From Candidatus Heimdallarchaeota archaeon (GTDB lineage: Archaea > Asgardarchaeota > Heimdallarchaeia > Hodarchaeales > Hodarchaeaceae): a stretch of 64,000 bases of DNA. Positions 50,683 to 61,270 of this stretch are shown here, one piece after another. Within the stretch, counting starts at the first letter, position 1; each line of letters opens with the position of its first letter. Under the pieces are notes generated by a model, which was not told the DNA's origin, did not search any database, and worked only from the letters and a program-made list of their open reading frames with translations. Location: positions 116,360 to 180,359 of the forward strand of contig RDOB01000004.1 in NCBI GenBank assembly GCA_011364965.1. Reading direction: 5' to 3'. Position numbers and translations under genes: made by a program.

Positions 50683-52962
50683 CTATATAATAATTTCTCT
50701 ACTTCTTGTGGTATATGTCATTAGCTCTTGTGAAAAAAGATCTACTAAATTCTGATTTGTAGTTATTACTCCCAAGAGCGCTTCTTTTAAGGGATCTTTT
50801 GGTTCAGGGCAAACTAAGAGTTCCTCTGCATCCCTTATACACCCCCAGAAATCAATACCATCCAATTGTTTTAGTCTTAGATTTCCAGCTTGAAGAATTC
50901 TTTTCAGAGTTGTTTCTGGTACCTTTCCAAAATCACCAATTATTGTTACACGGGTCCGCATTGGTAATTTGGATGCAGCGTTGAGAGTTTGGAGCTCGGG
51001 TCTTGGCATCAAAATCGTAAGAGAAGACTTTGACCTAAGTGTTAGATCCCTTAACATCATTATAATTGAGGGTTCTCCAACAACCAAATCACTACTAAAA
51101 AGCGTACCCTCAGTTTCAGGAATATCAAGATCTCGAGAAATAGTAAATATTTTTTCTAATTTCTGTCTCATTTGCTTTACTGAAAAGGTCAATGCGGAAA
51201 CTTCTTGATCAATTTGAGTTTCAATTGCATCAATTTGCTGATTCAATTCTTCATTAACTTCCTTTAAAGCTAAAATAAAGGTATTGAGCTGAGATTCGCG
51301 AAAACTATCAGAAAAAGCATTTAGACCTTCGAAGTAGCTATTTGCTGAATTTTCTAATTCTTGTACTTTGTTAAATAACTCTTTAATCTCATAGGTTACT
51401 TTTTGGTTAATTTCAGATGTTTTACTAACAAACTCATAAAATCCACTCGATTCAAAAGATTTTTCTTTTTCTTTTTCGAAAAATGACTTCAAAGAACCTT
51501 CAAAAATGGTTACAGCATCTTTTGTAAATGTAGAAACGGAATTATGATAATTATGATTTGTCTCCTCGATCTTTTGTTGGAATTGTTTTACTAAACTTGA
51601 AAAATTGCCATTCAATTCTTCAAGCAGCATTATTGCTTCCCGTTTGTACATATCGTGCTTCTTATGAATTAAAGCTCTAAACTCAGAACTAACATTAAAA
51701 TTTATCTCTCTTAAATCATTTTTAAGAGAAGGAAGCTGTTCGGTGAGTAAAGAAGCAATATTTTTAGCCTCAGTTTCAGCTGTATTGATAATTTCTTCTT
51801 CTGATAATTTAAATGCCGCATTTGAATCTTCTATTTTTTCCATAACGACATTTTTTCGAGTTATTAGACTAAATATTTCCTCATTGTTCTTTAGGATTCT
51901 CTGAAGATTTTCTAGAAAGATATCTTTTCCTTTGAATAACTTTCTACCTTGAATATCTTCAATTATTTCTTTTAGGATGGGTTCATTGGAATCCAGAAGT
52001 TCCTCTAATTCAGTAAAGATGGAACTCAGAGAGTGATTTATTTCTTCATAATTATTTCTTACCTCTATAAAAGAACCTTTCCTATTCGCAGCATTTTTTT
52101 GCGCATTTTCTAGCTTTAAGCTTATCTCACTAACTTTCTCCTCATACGCTTGTTGATCTTTATTTCGATTGAGCTCGAATTGATCTAGAATCTGATCTAG
52201 TTCTTCTTTTAAGTTTGAGTAGCTCTTCGTAATAGATTCTTTTGAAATATTAAATTCAGTATCATAATGATTTTGAAAATGACTCATAGGTGAAATTATG
52301 TCTTGAAGTAAAGTATCTAAATCCTTTTTCAGATTTGGTAAACTTGATGTATAAATCGTTGGAATTATATTTACATTTTTCAAGTTTAACGCGAGAATTC
52401 TGTTATTTAGCTCAATAACTTGTTGAGATATTTCATCAACACTTGTTTGAAGCAATATAATGTTCTCGTGAACCCCATTCTCAAAAGAATTGATGATTGT
52501 TTTAATTTCATTAGAAAAAGTATTGAATTTATCCTTCATTGGCTTAGTGCTTTGATAAAAATTATGCAGTAAAGCAAGACCGTCTTCTTGAAAATTCTTT
52601 GTTGATTTACTAAATACTTCTGATATTTCTTCTCGTTTATCTTTAATCGTATTTGAAGATTCTTTTCGAATATTTATCAATGTTATCGGATCGTATGCAA
52701 GTGAAAATGATTTAAGGTAGGGTTCTAAAGCAATATACCTACCAACTTTCCCAGGGATACGCAGAGCGAGCTTACTTCCCACCAACATCTGTAATGTTTC
52801 TTGAGTAGTGATATAATCTAATCCTGATAAGATACTTATCTGTCCAAGTGTTGCCATTCCTAAAGAAAGTAGGGCTACATACGTTTTGCTTTGTTCTTCA
52901 GTTAATCCTAATATTTGGCTTATTTCTGCTAAATGTTCTGAAGATGTTTTAAATCCTACCAT
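50683..52962 (-). CDS. TrmB-like wHTH + ~500 aa helical/coiled-coil region + TrmB/PLD-like C-terminal domain
   Basis: LGLTEEQSKTYVALLSLG..TLGQIS (TrmB HTH), GRYIALEP, and a C-terminal RSKSSLTILMP..CIRDAEELLVCP. Confidence 0.8.
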   Translation of the reverse strand: MVGFKTSSEHLAEISQILGLTEEQSKTYVALLSLGMATLGQISILSGLDYITTQETLQMLVGSKLALRIPGKVGRYIALEPYLKSFSLAYDPITLINIRKESSNTIKDKREEISEVFSKSTKNFQEDGLALLHNFYQSTKPMKDKFNTFSNEIKTIINSFENGVHENIILLQTSVDEISQQVIELNNRILALNLKNVNIIPTIYTSSLPNLKKDLDTLLQDIISPMSHFQNHYDTEFNISKESITKSYSNLKEELDQILDQFELNRNKDQQAYEEKVSEISLKLENAQKNAANRKGSFIEVRNNYEEINHSLSSIFTELEELLDSNEPILKEIIEDIQGRKLFKGKDIFLENLQRILKNNEEIFSLITRKNVVMEKIEDSNAAFKLSEEEIINTAETEAKNIASLLTEQLPSLKNDLREINFNVSSEFRALIHKKHDMYKREAIMLLEELNGNFSSLVKQFQQKIEETNHNYHNSVSTFTKDAVTIFEGSLKSFFEKEKEKSFESSGFYEFVSKTSEINQKVTYEIKELFNKVQELENSANSYFEGLNAFSDSFRESQLNTFILALKEVNEELNQQIDAIETQIDQEVSALTFSVKQMRQKLEKIFTISRDLDIPETEGTLFSSDLVVGEPSIIMMLRDLTLRSKSSLTILMPRPELQTLNAASKLPMRTRVTIIGDFGKVPETTLKRILQAGNLRLKQLDGIDFWGCIRDAEELLVCPEPKDPLKEALLGVITTNQNLVDLFSQELMTYTTRSREIII

Positions 52963-53410: not shown

Positions 53411-53965
53411 ATGAAAGTATGTTTGCTTGGTGATGGAGCTGTTGGTAAGACTGCTTTACGAGAGAGATATTTAGGCAAACAATTTTCCAGTGGTTATGTG
53501 ATGACAATTGGAGCGGATTTCGCGGTAAAGAGATCACAAATCATGACCGAAGAAGGAGTAAAAGATGTGAAGTTCCAAATTTGGGACTTAGCGGGACAAC
53601 CCCGTTTTAATAGTGTAAGAGAGTTGTATTATAAGGGAAGTCATGGAGGTCTTCTTGTTTTTGATATAACTAGAAGAGATTCATTTACAAATTTAGGAAA
53701 CTGGATTGATGAATTATATAAAAATTCAGGTAGAGGTCCCATGCCCATAACTGTATTAGGTAACAAAGTAGATCTCCAAGATGAAGTAGAGAACCCAGTT
53801 ACAAGAGAGGAAGCTATAAAGTTTATAGAAGAATTAAAAAAGAAAAAAAGCATCCCTTACGATGTTATCTACTTAGAAACTTCCGCAAAAACTGGTATAA
53901 ACGTTGATGAATCTTTTAATATACTTGCAATGACAATCAAGAAATATCTTACACGAACGAAATAA
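53411..53965 (+). CDS. Rab-like small GTPase
   Basis: GDGAVGKT, TIGADF, WDLAGQ, NKVD, ETSAK. No C-terminal Cys. Confidence 0.95.
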   Translation: MKVCLLGDGAVGKTALRERYLGKQFSSGYVMTIGADFAVKRSQIMTEEGVKDVKFQIWDLAGQPRFNSVRELYYKGSHGGLLVFDITRRDSFTNLGNWIDELYKNSGRGPMPITVLGNKVDLQDEVENPVTREEAIKFIEELKKKKSIPYDVIYLETSAKTGINVDESFNILAMTIKKYLTRTK

Positions 53966-53983: not shown

Positions 53984-54550
53984 TTGGTAACTATTTTAAG
54001 AATTGGCCACCGTAAAAAACGAGATAAACGTATAACCACCCATTTAGCTTTATCTGCACGCGCTTTTCAAGCAAGTAACATCATAATAGCTGGAGAAGAA
54101 GATCTTCAACTTCAAGAATCAATAAATAAAGTTACCGCAGAATGGGGAGGAGACTTCCAAATTTCAATGATCCCCTATGACGATTGGAAACCATTTGTAA
54201 TCCAATGGAAGTCCGAAAAAGAGGAAATTATTCATTTATCTATGTATGGGGAAACGCTTAGTGTTTTCGAGAATTCAAACGATTTCAAAATGCTAATAAA
54301 TGATAATAATAAACTTAATAACCTACTCATTATTGTTGGGGGAAAGAAAGTTCCTAGAAAAGTATTTGAATTAGCAAAGTGGAACATTGCGATAGGAAAC
54401 CAGCCTCATTCAGAAGTAAGTGCACTAGCTGTATTTTTAGATCATTTGAATCCAAAAGCATTGGATACCTGTTTCATGGGAGCAAAGCGTGAAGTAAAAC
54501 CTTCAATATTTGGGAAAAAAGAGTATAAAGATGAAAATTATGAGGAATAG
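53984..54550 (+). CDS. trm56: tRNA (cytidine(56)-2'-O)-methyltransferase (aTrm56)
   Basis: LRIGHR..RDKRITTH..L.ARAF, HLSMYG and NQPHSEVSALAVFLD. Confidence 0.93.
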   Translation: MVTILRIGHRKKRDKRITTHLALSARAFQASNIIIAGEEDLQLQESINKVTAEWGGDFQISMIPYDDWKPFVIQWKSEKEEIIHLSMYGETLSVFENSNDFKMLINDNNKLNNLLIIVGGKKVPRKVFELAKWNIAIGNQPHSEVSALAVFLDHLNPKALDTCFMGAKREVKPSIFGKKEYKDENYEE

Positions 54551-55064
54551 GAAAATACAGATTGGAGTAATCGGAGATTCGCAGATTCAATCTCAAAAAC
54601 AATATGATATTGCTTACAATATTGGAGTAGAAATATCAAGAGTAGGTGCTATTCTAATATGTGGAGGACGAGGGGGGGTTATGGAGGCTGCGTGTAAGGG
54701 AGTCTTTGATGAGGGTGGAATTTCAGTAGGAATTTTACCATTTGATAATCTTGATCCAGAGATAAACAAGTACTTAACTATTCGAATTCCCACAAACTTG
54801 GGATGGACAAGGAACTCTCTTGTTCCACTCGCTTCTGATGGTGTTATTGCTTGTGGAGGAGGAGTTGGAACCCTATCAGAACTTGCATTCACAGCTTTAA
54901 CTCATAAACCGCTCATATGTATAGTTGAAATCCCTGGATGGAGTGATAAAATAGGCCAAGCTGGCTATATAGATTTAAAAGAAAAATATGAAAAACTCTT
55001 CGCCACTACCTCAGGGAAAGAAGCAGTAACCTACTTGGTAGAACAAATACTAGCCACCCAATAA
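54531..55064 (+). CDS. TIGR00725 / LOG-like Rossmann-fold nucleotide-binding protein
   Basis: CGGRGGVMEAACKG, VGILP, RN and GGGVGTLSE. Confidence 0.9.
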   Translation: MKIMRNRKIQIGVIGDSQIQSQKQYDIAYNIGVEISRVGAILICGGRGGVMEAACKGVFDEGGISVGILPFDNLDPEINKYLTIRIPTNLGWTRNSLVPLASDGVIACGGGVGTLSELAFTALTHKPLICIVEIPGWSDKIGQAGYIDLKEKYEKLFATTSGKEAVTYLVEQILATQ

Positions 55065-55886
55065 TGAGAATAATCCTCCTGCTCCTGATTGGCTTGAAAA
55101 TATGTCTTTTATTCCATCACATAGAACTTTCAATAAAATATCCTCGTGCACATTGATTAAATCTGAATAAAGATCAAGAATCTCAAGGAATGCTTCCTCA
55201 TCTTCATTTTCGACTGCTCTGAAAATAGAGTTTGTGATTTCTAGGTATCTTGCCTCTATTGGGTTTTCTTCTTGAACGTTTTTACCATTTGACATTAATA
55301 AGTATTTGCCACAGCTTCCAATTTCATAAGCGTTTATTTCTGCTAAAGTGAGATAAGTCCGTATTCTTGCAGATAAATTTGTTGTTTCCTCACTATATGT
55401 TGAAAGGGCCTCAAAACACTCTACGTATTTCTTTTTTTGACATAAAATGCCAGCATAAGTATAATAAAGGTCAAATATTACATCATCGACAACTTCAGCT
55501 TCCAAAATAATATTATAATAGTGAAGGAGGAACTGATCATCTTGAAACGCACGTTCAGTAATAATTTGGGAATAAATATTTTGTAACCGAGAAAATTGAG
55601 ATTCTTCTCTCACTAGTTTGAATATCGCTTTAATCACCTCTACCCATTCTCTCTTATTTCTTACGGACCTAATCCCCAAAATGTAATTACTTATTAAATT
55701 AAAGGCTAATTTATCATGGTTAGCTTCTAAGAAAAGGGGGATAGCATCATTTAATATATTACTAACTATTTCAGGATCATTGGATTTCAAAGCTCGTTGG
55801 TAAGCTCCGAGGAGCATTTGATATCCGTCAAACCAGTGGCCAGAGGAAAGTTCCTGTAAACCTCTATCTACCCATGGATTTTTCAC
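55050..55886 (-). CDS. Alpha-solenoid protein, Get4/TRC35-like candidate
   Basis: N-terminal GHWFDGYQML....R and C-terminal AV......F......Y...DGIKDIF..GGLFSLLGG resemble Get4. Start placed at GTG 55886 after GTAGTGAT. Confidence 0.55.
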   Translation of the reverse strand: MKNPWVDRGLQELSSGHWFDGYQMLLGAYQRALKSNDPEIVSNILNDAIPLFLEANHDKLAFNLISNYILGIRSVRNKREWVEVIKAIFKLVREESQFSRLQNIYSQIITERAFQDDQFLLHYYNIILEAEVVDDVIFDLYYTYAGILCQKKKYVECFEALSTYSEETTNLSARIRTYLTLAEINAYEIGSCGKYLLMSNGKNVQEENPIEARYLEITNSIFRAVENEDEEAFLEILDLYSDLINVHEDILLKVLCDGIKDIFSSQSGAGGLFSLLGG

Positions 55887-56326
55887 AATAATCACTACGA
55901 TTTCATATTTTTGGACTAAAAGAGATACATTAAGGACAAGAGTCTTAATTTTGAGATCTAAGTACAAATGAAAAATTAAAACGCTTATAAAGTTATAGTG
56001 ATGGAGAGGTTTAGATCAACCATTTCATTTGAAATAAGATTATACTAATCTTTTCCATGCTAATTATCATTTACTATTGGGATAATTTGTTATAAATATG
56101 ACAAGAGCCCTTAGACAGACTAAATCTTAAATATGGGTTCAAAAAACAATTTTATTAATGATGATAGATATTATTTTTAAAGGAAAAACTCAAGAAACGG
56201 GTGTTTGAATAGCGAATAACGCGCGGATTTAAATTCGTGTATTTAATATTCTTCCTAACCAGATAGATTGATATTACTATCTGTCAAGCTTTATAAATTT
56301 TCGTTGTTTACAGAAGTTGATAAAAA

Positions 56327-57292
56327 TTGAGCAATTCTGAATTTATAAAACAATATACTGTTAATGATGACGGCACTCTTAATCCCATCTCTATTTCTTC
56401 CTTCTCTGAACTGACTCAGGATAATGTTTTCATAATTGTTGAAGAAAACGCAAGAAAAATTTTCATATGGAAGGGAGAAAAGGCTCCTGTACGAAGAAAA
56501 TTTATATCTGCAAAAGCAGCTCAACAAATGAGAGCTGAAGAGTATGGGATGGTTTATCGGATTGAAAGCCTTGATCCTGGCCTGGAGGGGTCAGACTTTC
56601 TCTCAATCTTTGGTATTACTGCAACAGAAGCCCCAGAAATCGATTATGAATCTGATTTGGCGACAGTTATGGATTCAGTGCCCGCACCAGCTCCAACAAT
56701 GAGACCTACTCCAGCACCGGCTGTAACACCTCAACCAGCACCAAAAATAGAGACAGTTCCAAAAAGCGTGCCAATATCAGCCGAAACAATGCAATCAGCT
56801 GTAAAATCTACTCCAAAACCAGTTCCTGCGACAATAACTCCGACTGAAAGTAGACCAGCTCCTGCAGCAAGAGTTAGTGCTCCAGTAACACCAAGCCCAA
56901 AACCCACTAGAGTTGTTAAAGAAACAGAAGTGGTTGTAACCGAACCAGTTAGGACTAGTGCAATTGCATCATTAGATGAAATTAAAGTCAAATTGAAGGA
57001 GTTAGAAATTCCTCAGAATATGGAACGTGAGATTATTATAGTTGGAAATGTAGTATTTTCAGTAATAAAAGAACATCTTGCCTTATTCTCGAAGGATGTC
57101 GTAAAGTTAGAACCTATGAATGACTTACCAGCTGGAATTTTCCCTGCTTCCGATTATCAAGTAAGATTATTTATAGAAAAAGAGAAAGTAATGTTTGTTG
57201 AGCTATTAAGAAGAAAAACCAGATCAGAAAGAGAAGAATTTGTTGATGATATGAGAAAATCGCTCCAAGATTTGTCAAAGTTAGGATTATAA
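56327..57292 (+). CDS. Single-domain gelsolin/villin-like protein with Pro/Thr/Ala-rich linker and C-terminal domain
   Basis: LTQDNVFIIV..KIFIWKGEKAPVRRKFISAKAAQQM..PGLEGSDFLSIF is a gelsolin repeat signature. Confidence 0.85.
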   Translation: MSNSEFIKQYTVNDDGTLNPISISSFSELTQDNVFIIVEENARKIFIWKGEKAPVRRKFISAKAAQQMRAEEYGMVYRIESLDPGLEGSDFLSIFGITATEAPEIDYESDLATVMDSVPAPAPTMRPTPAPAVTPQPAPKIETVPKSVPISAETMQSAVKSTPKPVPATITPTESRPAPAARVSAPVTPSPKPTRVVKETEVVVTEPVRTSAIASLDEIKVKLKELEIPQNMEREIIIVGNVVFSVIKEHLALFSKDVVKLEPMNDLPAGIFPASDYQVRLFIEKEKVMFVELLRRKTRSEREEFVDDMRKSLQDLSKLGL

Positions 57293-57308: not shown

Positions 57309-57845
57309 ATGAGTGAAAACGAGTATTTGCTAAAGATTTGTGCTATTGGCTCTGGGAGTGTCGGAAAGACTTCACTAATTCGTCGTTATGCTGAAGGTAA
57401 ATTTACAACCAATTACTTACCCACGTTAGGGGTGGATATCACAACTAAGAAAATTCAAATTGCTAATAATCAGGTGAAACTCATCCTTGTGGACACAGCG
57501 GGACAAGAATTCTTTGGAAAACTTAGACCCAGTTATTATAGAGGAGCATCTGCCTGTCTAATCATGTTTGCTTTGAATGAAAAGAAAACGTTTGATGCTG
57601 TTCCAAATTGGTTAGCTGAATTCAGAAAGCATATTCCTGAATCTACCATTCCTATTGCTTTAGCTGGAAATAAAAAAGATCTAGAAAAAGACAGACAAGT
57701 ATCCACCGAAGAAGCTAAAAAATTTGCCACAGAGAGAAATATGTCGTATTTTGAGACTTCAGCTAAATTAGGTGGGGATGAAATTGAACAAATTTTTCAT
57801 AATTTAGCTCAGGACGCCTTAAACACACGAAATAGCTATAAATAA
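57309..57845 (+). CDS. Rab-like small GTPase
   Basis: GSGSVGKT, YLPTLGVD, DTAGQE, YYRGA, NKKD, ETSAK. No C-terminal Cys. Confidence 0.95.
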   Translation: MSENEYLLKICAIGSGSVGKTSLIRRYAEGKFTTNYLPTLGVDITTKKIQIANNQVKLILVDTAGQEFFGKLRPSYYRGASACLIMFALNEKKTFDAVPNWLAEFRKHIPESTIPIALAGNKKDLEKDRQVSTEEAKKFATERNMSYFETSAKLGGDEIEQIFHNLAQDALNTRNSYK

Positions 57846-57869: not shown

Positions 57870-58622
57870 ATGACAGCAAACGCGGATTTTGAAGTTATAA
57901 AAAGAGACCATCAAGGAGTTCCTGTTGTCAAAATTGTCTTCTGGGGGCCAACTCTTGCTGGGAAAACTACTGCTCTTACTATTACAAAGGTTCTAAAGAG
58001 CCTAGAAGACCCAGAAAATGTCTATAAATTCCTCAAACTTGAAGATCCAACCGGGCGAACATTATTTTTCGACCAAGCGATTTTTGGGATTGGAAAGACA
58101 ACTGCAGGCTTACCAATATTAAAATATCACTTATTCACAGTTCCTGGTCAAGAACGTCATTCTGGGCAGCGCAAGGTAGTGCTTAGAGGAGCTCACGGTC
58201 TGATAATCGTTATTGACTCTGAAAAATCTCGCTGGGAAGAGAATAAGTTTGCATTAGAAGAAATAAATCAATTAGCTGGAGACAAATTAGCTAATGGTAC
58301 ATTACCATATCATATTATGTTAAATAAGATGGATCTTCCCAAAGAACAGCGAATATCGGCATTAGAGGTAGGAAAATTATTAAGTGAATCAAGGGTAGTG
58401 GCAAGTCTTCGAGATGCTGCGGTTAGAATTGTAGAAGTATCCTGTTTGGAAGCACGTGACGATTTAAAGGCCTTACTTTCATCAGGGGATCGAAGTAAAA
58501 TTGTCGACCAAACTGGAAAATTAAAAAAGGAATATCGCCCCCCAAGTGTAACACGTGTTATTAAATCTGTGGAAACTCTTATACGAGAAATAATAATTCA
58601 AATGATGAAACAACAGCAATAG
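57870..58622 (+). CDS. MglA-type small GTPase
   Basis: KIVFWGPTLAGKTT, RTLFFD (intrinsic Arg), FTVPGQ, RKVVLRGAHG, NKMDLP. Confidence 0.9.
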   Translation: MTANADFEVIKRDHQGVPVVKIVFWGPTLAGKTTALTITKVLKSLEDPENVYKFLKLEDPTGRTLFFDQAIFGIGKTTAGLPILKYHLFTVPGQERHSGQRKVVLRGAHGLIIVIDSEKSRWEENKFALEEINQLAGDKLANGTLPYHIMLNKMDLPKEQRISALEVGKLLSESRVVASLRDAAVRIVEVSCLEARDDLKALLSSGDRSKIVDQTGKLKKEYRPPSVTRVIKSVETLIREIIIQMMKQQQ

Positions 58623-59425: not shown

Positions 59426-61270
59426 ATGAGTTCTTTATCGGCTTCAAATGACATTCTTGTTATTCATCAAAACAGAATCATCTTTAGCTCTGGTAGTGGG
59501 GCGTTAACACAACATAGCAAAATTAGTGCAACAGTAACCCAAGTTTTAAATCTTTTTTCCCAGAAAATCATGAAAGGAGAACAAATACACTTTATAAGGT
59601 TTGAAAATCATCGCATGATATTCTTATTCTCCCCTGCAAGGAAAGAAGAATTAGTAGCAATTGTTTTAATCCCAATAGATCGAAGCGCAAGGCAAATTTT
59701 ACCTACAATGAGCATGATTTTAGGATTATTAGAAGAATTTCTCCAGGGTAATATTCTAGACGCACAAAATCGTCATTTAGATTGCTTTCACCAAATCTTG
59801 TCAACTCATGAAGATTCTTTATACATCATCCCTCGAACAGCAGATGGAATATTAGCAGCGTTAGTACTACTAACGGCTTTCGCTCATGATATGCAGCTTG
59901 GAATCCAAAAAGTTGTTTCTAATATAAGATTTATAAACCCACAGAAACCTCAAGAAATCAGTAATATACTGCATCAAGCAGAAAATAAAAGGATTCTATC
60001 TTTTATCGATATTCCAGAAGCAGAGACGAGAGAGAATATTCTTGTATTCGGTATTGAATCTCCACTAAGGCAATATTTCTCTGCATTGCCAGGCGAACGT
60101 ATTTATGATGCATTAGGTAGGATATTTGGTGAGAAATCTAATGCTGCTAAGATGAGATCATTTATTGCTAATGAAGATGCCCAAGAAATAGCACAATCAA
60201 TATCATTATTTCCTGAATCAGAAGATGGGTTTATTAGAAAAGAGATTCTACTGAATACTGTATTACAACCAGGGAAAGATATAATTGTCTCGATATCTAC
60301 TCCTGTTATGCAAAAGTTACGAGAATTGTCGTCAACAACACGAGAAACATCACGCGTTAAACATAAATTTCCAAAAGATGTTCCTGTTGATGACCTTGAT
60401 GCTCTCACGGAACACCTTATAGAGGAGGAAATAGCTGAAGTAAAACCAATTGTTCAGGACCTAGGAGTAAAAAATGCTCAAGCATTATCAGCAGAGCCCG
60501 ATGCAATTCCTTCTGCTATACAAATAGAACCAATTACCACTATTCCATCTCGAAAAGTTACCAAAGAAACAATGGTTCAATTGGAGAAAGCGAAAAAGGG
60601 AGGACATGAATATAGATTCAATTCTATCCCCATATTATTAGATACATCTCCATTTGCTTTAAATATAACAGAAACGGATAGCTTACCTTATGATCCCTCA
60701 AAAATGACAATTCGTGTTTTTAATAATCAGAATAGACAATTTTGTATCCATATCTTGACTTCTTCAGATAGACTTCCACCTTTGAAAGAATCAATGGAGG
60801 ATTTGTCTATGAGATTAGGGGGAGAAACTCAGTTGCACAAAGATCATATCTCGATTCAAGGTCCTGTTGAAAAGCAATCTAATGCGATTAAAGCCCTTCT
60901 TTGGCTTTTAATTGTAGAATATTTAACACAAGTAGAATTAAATAAATTTCCATTATCGAAACGTTTCGAGATTCCTAGAGAGGGTTCTATTTTAATAATT
61001 CCACCTAAACGTGACTTTGTTCGTGAAAAAATACCATCTAAATTTAAAACCTTTGTAGTAGAGGAAGAAGTAAGGAGGAAGATTGAACAAGAAGCATTAT
61101 GGACATTAGGACAATCTCAAGATACCTTAATCTCCAAATTAATGGAACCATTAAAACATGGTGAAGGAGTTGTTTTCATTGCGTCAGATAGGAACCAAGA
61201 AATGGAAGAAATTGCTCTATTCCTTCTTTTAGTCTCTGAAACTTGTGGTATTGGATTTTCTAGATGGTAG
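59426..61270 (+). CDS. N-terminal longin-like domain protein with DENN-like alpha/beta segments
   Basis: beta-beta-alpha-beta-beta-beta-alpha pattern (ILVIH/RIIF, VTQVLNLFSQKIM, IHFIRFENHRMIF, LVAIVLIP), followed by helix-strand-helix units. Confidence 0.55.
   Translation: MSSLSASNDILVIHQNRIIFSSGSGALTQHSKISATVTQVLNLFSQKIMKGEQIHFIRFENHRMIFLFSPARKEELVAIVLIPIDRSARQILPTMSMILGLLEEFLQGNILDAQNRHLDCFHQILSTHEDSLYIIPRTADGILAALVLLTAFAHDMQLGIQKVVSNIRFINPQKPQEISNILHQAENKRILSFIDIPEAETRENILVFGIESPLRQYFSALPGERIYDALGRIFGEKSNAAKMRSFIANEDAQEIAQSISLFPESEDGFIRKEILLNTVLQPGKDIIVSISTPVMQKLRELSSTTRETSRVKHKFPKDVPVDDLDALTEHLIEEEIAEVKPIVQDLGVKNAQALSAEPDAIPSAIQIEPITTIPSRKVTKETMVQLEKAKKGGHEYRFNSIPILLDTSPFALNITETDSLPYDPSKMTIRVFNNQNRQFCIHILTSSDRLPPLKESMEDLSMRLGGETQLHKDHISIQGPVEKQSNAIKALLWLLIVEYLTQVELNKFPLSKRFEIPREGSILIIPPKRDFVREKIPSKFKTFVVEEEVRRKIEQEALWTLGQSQDTLISKLMEPLKHGEGVVFIASDRNQEMEEIALFLLLVSETCGIGFSRW

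Follow-up and report, generated by a model that had tools for sequence, protein, structure and literature searches.

In the eukaryotic GET/TRC pathway, Get4/TRC35 is the adaptor that primes the Get3 ATPase for tail-anchored membrane proteins. Get3 is known in all domains of life, while the machinery that loads it, Get4, Get5, Sgt2 and Bag6, is treated as a eukaryotic invention. The C-terminal domain of Get4 is bound by the N-domain of Get5 in fungi or by Bag6/Ubl4A in metazoa. Eukaryotic Get4 attaches through its N-domain to the ATPase domains of Get3 when the Get3 dimer is closed and loaded with ATP, and an amphipathic helix at the C-terminus of yeast Get4 (residues 299-308), together with helix 8 of Get3, makes up a composite lid that covers the client chamber (PMC12506534). 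Here, we describe a gene whose product is probably an archaeal homologue of Get4/TRC35, highly diverged and built as a TPR-like α-solenoid, with a function that would be assigned by analogy. It lies at 55050..55886 on the minus strand of a 64,000-nucleotide stretch of a Candidatus Heimdallarchaeota genome (Hodarchaeales; contig RDOB01000004.1), which we refer to as the window, and an initial annotation made from the letters alone had already proposed a Get4/TRC35 homologue there.

The gene is very probably a new archaeal variant of a family that has so far been described only in eukaryotes. Pathway reviews treat Get4 in eukaryotes only (e.g. PMC6593721), a 2019 survey of Get3 in all domains refers to Get4 only as a eukaryotic partner, and a 2026 preprint on structural clusters shared by Asgard archaea and eukaryotes lists Get3/ArsA but not Get4. 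Our literature search found no paper linking Get4 with Asgard archaea or Hodarchaeales with tail-anchored proteins, and none describing a Get4-like archaeal family.

Profile and motif comparisons with Get4

Searched alone, the 278-aa protein (P0001) gave no useful match in Pfam or NCBIfam, or in the PDB with phmmer, and Pfam had nothing useful for any of the 33 family members either. A word-indexed search of 5.8 billion proteins yielded 34 relatives, all of them unnamed proteins from metagenome-assembled genomes of Heimdallarchaeota, Hodarchaeales or 'Promethearchaeota', and when 1.84 billion cluster representatives were scanned exhaustively with phmmer, no more than 17 matched. When a profile of 33 family members was compared with 177,635 distinct PDB sequences, only Get4/TRC35 chains were returned (E 0.025). 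Widening the profile improved the best Get4 E value from 0.025 to 0.0047 and then to 2.2e-4. With the widest profile, which includes the two most divergent members (P0237 and P0238), the top 8 sequences were all yeast or human Get4, and the next was a designed repeat protein at E 0.12. Designed helical repeats appeared in these searches at E 0.017-0.12, and Get4 was the sole natural family matched. Get4 is thus the top profile match, as had been anticipated, and the match strengthens with the diversity of the profile, which is how a true remote homology behaves.

We also compared the family by hhalign with 23 fungal Get4 proteins, all carrying PF04190 and retrieved with a Get4 fragment taken from HMMER output, so that the eukaryotic sample is fungal only. 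The first run gave P 1.7e-4 over 260 columns. After the two divergent Asgard members had been added, the values were Prob 89.5%, P 2e-6 and a score of 51.3, with 259 colinear columns joining positions 2-269 of the family to 8-296 of Get4 at ~16% identity. The reversed profile scored 14.0, and 100 permutations in which blocks of 18 columns were shuffled had a mean of 19.3, a standard deviation of 3.8 and a maximum of 32.8. Taken separately, the N half matched fungal Get4 with P 4.9e-6 (columns 2-88 against Get4 8-101) and the C half with P 0.0093, landing on the correct region (Get4 167-274). The two halves match independently and in order, which supports homology. By both hhalign and the PDB profile search, the similarity to bona fide Get4 is full-length, colinear and statistically significant. 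In a feature search of the ESM Atlas, GET4 clusters made up 14 of the 30 matches, including the top three (0.92; 208 of 256 features shared).

The clearest correspondence lies in the signature helix (residues 16-31, G-H-W-F-D-G-Y-Q-M-L-L-G-A-Y-Q-R; 55794..55841, minus strand), which aligns to Get4 G27-D-Y-Y-E-A-H-Q...R42. Across 28-33 family members, F19, Q23, G27 and R31 are invariant, and W18, D20, G21 and A28 nearly so. The fungal Get4 invariants G27, Y30, E31, Q34 and R42 align with family columns G16, F19, D20, Q23 and R31, and a second set, Q68, D74 and L75, aligns with the conserved columns Q57, D63 and L64. Thus, the family carries both the N-terminal helix motif (G-H-W-F-D-G-x-Q...R) and a downstream Asp-Leu (consensus LACDL), and both lineages fit the pattern G-x-[YW]-[YF]-[ED]-x-x-Q...R followed by D-L. 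The chemistry of the signature (aromatic-aromatic-acidic, Gln, Arg) is kept, while the residues are not identical: the Tyr-Tyr-Glu-Ala-His of Get4 is replaced by Trp-Phe-Asp-Gly-x in the archaeal family. The ungapped N-terminal alignment of GHWFDGYQ with GDYYEAHQ, given in the initial annotation, was recovered in the same register by HMMER and hhalign, far beyond the permutations.

The helix is part of an N-terminal domain of seven helices (residues 1-132; 55491..55886, minus strand), the equivalent of the Get3-binding N-domain of Get4. Modelled alone, this domain reached a predicted local distance difference test score (pLDDT) of 93.4. An AlphaFold2 model of the whole protein, made with the family alignment, is all-helical, with 14 helices, a mean pLDDT of 88.4 and a predicted template modelling score of 0.87; a loop (199-205) and the tail (267-278) are disordered, with pLDDT below 50 for 267-278. 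Open reading frame (ORF), translation and model agree on the all-helical protein of about 278 aa described at the outset. As modelled, it resembles Get4/TRC35 in being a fourteen-helix α-solenoid of comparable length (278 aa, with 290-330 for Get4). A long loop joins its helices 10 and 11, at the place of the β-hairpin region of Get4, and, again as in Get4, a K-[QS] linker leads into a short C-terminal tail of hydrophobic residues.

The most conserved part of the C-terminal domain is a block at residues 178-196 (YLTLAEINAYEIgsCGKYL in the family alignment; 55299..55355, minus strand), which falls in helix 173-186 of the model and the loop after it. Its invariant positions are Y178, L179, L181, E183, N185, A186 and E188. 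This block, YLTLAEINAYE..CGKYL, is not seen in Get4 and may form a partner-binding surface. The flexible tail (residues 268-278; 55053..55085, minus strand) combines low pLDDT with conservation: it ends in G-L-F-S-L-(F/L), the motif GLFSLF/GGLFSLL is nearly invariant in the family, and G271, L272, S274, L275 and F276 are invariant or nearly so. The tail resembles the consensus of the fungal Get4 tail, ...NFLQDMMSGFLGG, by eye and outside the hhalign alignment, and it is a plausible candidate counterpart of the Get4 lid helix. The C-terminal parallel with human GET4 drawn at the outset therefore stands in part: the colinear alignment runs to residue 269 (Get4 296) and the C half matches by itself, more weakly than the N half, while the likeness of the terminal tail was seen only by eye.

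The coding sequence begins at the GTG at 55886 and ends with the stop codon at 55050-55052; the ORF that encloses it spans 55050..55967 on the minus strand. Two further starts are available in this frame, a GTG at 55895, three codons upstream, which gives 281 aa, and a TTG at 55967, which gives 305 aa. Members of the database cluster have 281 and 305 aa, and two records use the 281-aa start. Because orthologues of similar length (273-285 aa) begin at the position aligned with GTG 55886, the 278-aa form is likely to be right. The GTG at 55895 is a possible true start, and the 305-aa form, with an extension absent from the orthologues, is probably an over-extension.

Family distribution and the Get3-type ATPase

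Whole-genome searches found the gene single-copy and intact in all 22 genomes of the source's own family within Heimdallarchaeia, while a first profile search did not detect it in the 61 other genomes of the class. A wider profile, run against 400 Asgard genomes, added two copies. P0238 (290 aa; L043:843-1712 = G070:C604, minus strand) comes from one of the two genomes of the sister family, and P0237 (284 aa; L042:1101-1952 = G397:C27:37600-38451, minus strand) from another Asgard class, where it is the sole copy found among three genomes; NCBI lists its genome as Heimdallarchaeota. None of the other Heimdallarchaeia families has the gene by this profile search, which also did not detect it in the remaining ~370 Asgard genomes. 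A 225-aa ORF in G144/G146 and matches in G138 and G186 (E 0.001-0.008 in the phylum search) were inspected and not taken as family members.

P0237 and P0238 are the most divergent members, with 17-19% identity to P0001 in a family whose internal identities range from 17 to 61%. The N-terminal start of P0237, ...ERGDWYDSLESFQGALFR, carries GDWYD, which is nearer to the eukaryotic GDYYE than the motif of P0001 is, and through this stretch its best PDB match is human TRC35. Its tail is Gly/Pro/Phe-rich (GFPGFPGMPFGGGV) in place of GLFSLF; P0238 ends in GGLFPLF. In their C-terminal halves, P0237 and P0238 match the Pfam GET4 model (PF04190, formerly DUF410) with 18.6 and 15.5 bits (E 0.0016 and 0.015), below its gathering threshold of 30 bits. 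With the PDB profile searches, hhalign and the ESM features, these sub-threshold matches uphold the assignment made in the initial annotation, and the protein is very probably a true, highly diverged Get4 homologue.

Also present in the genome is a Get3-type ATPase of 313 aa (P0036), in which a P-loop, a CPYC zinc motif, a Met-rich insert and an ELYSDF motif can be recognised. Get3/ArsA1 are its best PDB matches (E 1e-48 to 1e-101), and 20 of the 22 family genomes carry an orthologue. Thus, as in organisms with Get4/TRC35, a cognate Get3-type ATPase accompanies the adaptor-like protein. Convergent with the Get3 gene, with 26 bases between the 3' ends, is a gene for a 205-aa protein whose centre is a long low-complexity stretch rich in Pro/Ser/Thr (L001:855-1472, plus strand).

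A complex of the Get3 dimer, the Get4-like protein, 2 ATP and Zn, a prediction suggested in the initial annotation, was modelled with alignments. The three runs scored 0.47-0.52 and the best of 3 controls scored 0.00; the runs share at least 71% of contacts, and the pLDDT of the partner is at least 83. The top score of 0.52 is graded as weak support. Solved complexes pass the mark in 58 of 80 cases and mismatched pairs in 2 of 110, but those that pass it with 0.60 or less comprise only 7 of the 80 complexes and both mismatched pairs.

We looked for the other components of the eukaryotic pathway with Pfam models. Get5_N (PF12754) had no match in the genome at E up to 1, in an assembly that is 87% complete and at a level of search that could miss a strongly diverged partner. 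SGTA_dimer (Sgt2) and CHD5/Get1 were not found in the genome by the same kind of search, and the only insertase found was of the EMC3/TMCO1/DUF106 type. The proposal of an Asgard precursor of the GET pre-targeting complex is therefore sustained for two components, the Get4-like protein and Get3, and not for Get5/Ubl4A, Sgt2 or Get1. The archaeal genome differs in this from Get4/TRC35 systems, since neither a Get5/Ubl4A/Bag6 partner nor Sgt2 was detected in it.

By analogy with the eukaryotic pathway, we consider it slightly favoured that the Get4-like protein binds and regulates Get3. In such a mechanism, the N-domain, through the W-F-D-G-x-Q...R helix and the downstream conserved D-L, would dock on the ATP-bound, closed Get3 dimer, and this docking would hold Get3 ready to accept the hydrophobic anchor at the C-terminus of tail-anchored proteins. 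The hydrophobic GLFSLF tail might help to cover the Get3 client chamber, and the conserved C-domain might bind an upstream partner. An effect on the Get3 ATPase and a role in membrane-protein targeting may follow by the same analogy. More tentatively, Hodarchaeales and a few other Asgard lineages might possess a minimal, two-part pre-targeting system, in which the adaptor would lock Get3 in its ATP state without Get5 or Sgt2 and use GLFSLF as a lid, the C-domain block would dock an upstream archaeal chaperone, and the regulated hand-off of tail-anchored proteins, which is central to the eukaryotic GET pathway, would have arisen in archaeal ancestors of eukaryotes, earlier than the endoplasmic reticulum.

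Contrary evidence and rival explanations

Several observations weigh against this interpretation. P0001 and 32 relatives have no match to Pfam GET4, and no member of the family attains the gathering score; because membership in the curated model fails, the claim is one of remote homology and not of model membership. In the reverse direction, a hidden Markov model of fungal Get4 returned only noise from the 22 family genomes and did not recover the locus, and a PF04190 search of the source genome gave nothing there. P0001 itself has Asn63 where the family and Get4 have Asp. On the Get3 side, Lys69, which Gristick et al. 2014 are said to have identified as the salt-bridge partner of Get4 Asp74, corresponds to Gln in P0036 in an alignment made by eye. 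The predicted complex received its weak grade, and its score may show likeness more than binding because Get3-Get4 complexes have already been solved. Get3 is found in 77 of 83 genomes of the class, against one family for the regular occurrence of the Get4-like protein. Because Get3 is so much wider, it must work without the Get4-like protein in most relatives, and the adaptor would be an addition of one lineage and not a general requirement.

The structural searches also count on this side. With the whole chain, Foldseek placed Sec17/alpha-SNAP at the top (E 1e-4, template modelling (TM) score 0.44-0.46), above Get4 (E 4e-3, TM 0.38). Sec17/alpha-SNAP likewise gave the higher value with VIA, Z 12.8 (root-mean-square deviation (rmsd) 6.7, 229 aligned, from Sec17 residue 35), against Z 10.9/10.6 (rmsd 9.3) for the end-to-end match to Get4; all VIA Z values given here lie within the range that helical repeats reach through arrangement alone. 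The N-domain (residues 1-132) superposed on yeast Get4 11-164 with Z 10.1 (rmsd 4.3, 127 aligned), and its values for Get4 of three species, Z 10.1, 10.0 and 9.7, tie with those for eIF3a and designed repeats. For eIF3a, the N-domain gave Z 10.5 (rmsd 3.3), and the whole chain gave Z ~10-11 with Rpn subunits. Foldseek found no match to the N-domain below E 0.2, and the ESM Atlas, searched by shape, offered generic TPR proteins of bacteria, with TM values under 0.5. The fold is thus compatible with Get4, but because Sec17, PCI proteins and designed repeats score equal to or above it, the fold searches do not discriminate. The initial annotation had staked its reading on Get4 being the top structural match as well, and on the whole chain this expectation failed, in searches that cannot tell these families apart. 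As for the PCI proteins (eIF3a, Rpn and CSN subunits), they superpose on the N-domain as well as Get4 does but are much longer, and the archaeal protein has neither the winged-helix PCI module after its repeats nor any sequence signal for them.

Among the alternatives, the one that survives best, which we regard as unlikely, is a lineage-specific TPR-like scaffold with no specific Get4 ancestry, for example an adaptor for the neighbouring Rab and gelsolin genes, in which convergent repeat patterns would account for the likeness. It fits the facts that every match lies under the curated family thresholds, that generic TPR, PCI and designed repeat proteins score about as well in the fold searches, and that designed helical repeats come up in the PDB profile searches. 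It also fits the gene order kept in 12 related genomes: a Rab-like GTPase, aTrm56, a SLOG/LOG-like gene, the Get4-like gene on the opposite strand, gelsolin and a second Rab-like GTPase. This synteny, however, is confined to one family. The Get4-like gene runs toward one neighbour and away from the other, opposite in strand to both, which gives no hint of an operon partner. Moreover, the similarity extends colinearly along the full length and singles out one family in the PDB set, it grows with profile diversity, and permutations that keep helix-sized blocks intact never came near the observed score. The positions that the archaeal family conserves fall on the motif that is invariant in Get4 itself, and the canonical TPR and SNAP models do not match the protein. 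We therefore prefer divergence from a common ancestor with Get4 to convergence.

A still less probable reading accepts the Get4 homology but has Hodarchaeales receiving the gene from a (proto-)eukaryote by ancient transfer, not by inheritance from the common ancestor, perhaps with a change of use since. The narrow and patchy distribution (22 of 22 genomes in one family, one of two in its sister family and one genome in another class) would suit such an origin, as would the failure to find Get5, Sgt2 and Get1 in the source genome. A recent transfer is excluded by the ~16% identity to eukaryotic Get4 together with the 17-61% identity inside the family itself. The conserved gene order in related genomes indicates that the gene is archaeal and under selection. 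Contamination with eukaryotic DNA was considered and ruled out by the archaeal neighbours, the conserved synteny, the single-contig assemblies among the 12 syntenic genomes and the presence in 22 of 22 genomes.

SNARE-like proteins have been reported from Heimdallarchaeota, and the last alternative, an archaeal alpha-SNAP/Sec17-like adaptor that would bridge SNARE-like proteins to an NSF/Cdc48-type AAA ATPase, draws on the top whole-chain structural matches, on SNAP clusters at ranks 8 and 22-23 of the ESM feature search and on the position of the gene among Rab-like GTPases and gelsolin. The protein agrees with alpha-SNAP/Sec17 (PF14938) in size and in general architecture, a twisted solenoid of TPR type whose C-terminal bundle is more globular, and as a whole chain it superposes on this family best. 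However, despite the many SNAP/Sec17 chains that the PDB contains, the profile searches of it listed none at E up to 10. Against 14 SNAP proteins, the hhalign values for the family, P 0.066 and 0.037 from 32-33 aligned columns, stayed within the permutation null, and the C half gave P 0.17, so the resemblance of the C-terminal part to alpha-SNAP, raised as a possibility at the outset, found no support at the sequence level. This profile test is less sensitive than the one with Get4, because the SNAP set is vertebrate-only and shallow (effective number of sequences, Neff, 1.4). The set itself is genuine: its seed was a 75-residue alpha-SNAP fragment, and the proteins retrieved were 100% identical to it, are named alpha-SNAP and carry PF14938. 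The Pfam SNAP model matches several other TPR proteins of the source genome and misses this ORF. The structural alignment starts at Sec17 residue 35, so that the N-terminal helices of SNAP are missing from the archaeal protein, and SNAP is absent from the top 50 VIA matches of the N-domain alone. Since the structural match comes without support from sequence profiles, we read alpha-SNAP as a fold look-alike and this alternative as very improbable.

The SNAP model also scored above its Pfam cut-off (50.2 bits, model positions 27-226) in a 528-aa ORF elsewhere in the genome, outside the window (G000:C12:419567-420163). Because the model matches in 11 of 14 control prokaryotes as well, this ORF is probably a generic protein of TPR_12 type.

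Gene neighbourhood and significance

In the window, the SLOG/LOG-like gene (54510-55064, plus strand) and the Get4-like gene converge with a 3' overlap of 15 bases (55050-55064). On the other side lies the gene for the 321-aa gelsolin neighbour (56327-57292, plus strand), which has no Pfam match. Its first 100 residues match solved Asgard gelsolins (2DGel3 and Heimdallarchaeota 2DGel; E 8e-7 to 2e-4) and villin/adseverin; its termini are ~75-80% identical among relatives, while its Pro/Ala/Thr-rich middle is variable or missing. Three GTPase genes flank the locus (53411-53965, 57309-57845 and 57870-58622, all on the plus strand), two of the Ras/Rab family (Pfam Ras E 5e-43 and 8e-51) and a third that is divergent and Arf/MglA-like. 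Farther out, a 759-aa protein (50683-52962, minus strand) begins with a TrmB-type winged helix followed by ~600 residues with weak coiled-coil-type matches only, an architecture unusual for a TrmB regulator. A 614-aa ORF downstream of Sua5 (59426-61270, plus strand) has no Pfam match at E 0.01.

A sister-group relationship between Hodarchaeales and eukaryotes has been proposed (PMC10307638), and this placement is debated (PMC12222021). As a soluble two-protein system, the 278-aa adaptor-like protein and the 313-aa ATPase would suit bench study of how the regulation of Get3 originated. If the Get4 homology proposed here is true, an adaptor of membrane-protein targeting would join the list of eukaryotic signature proteins, and the regulated hand-off of clients to Get3 may predate the endomembrane system and eukaryotes themselves.

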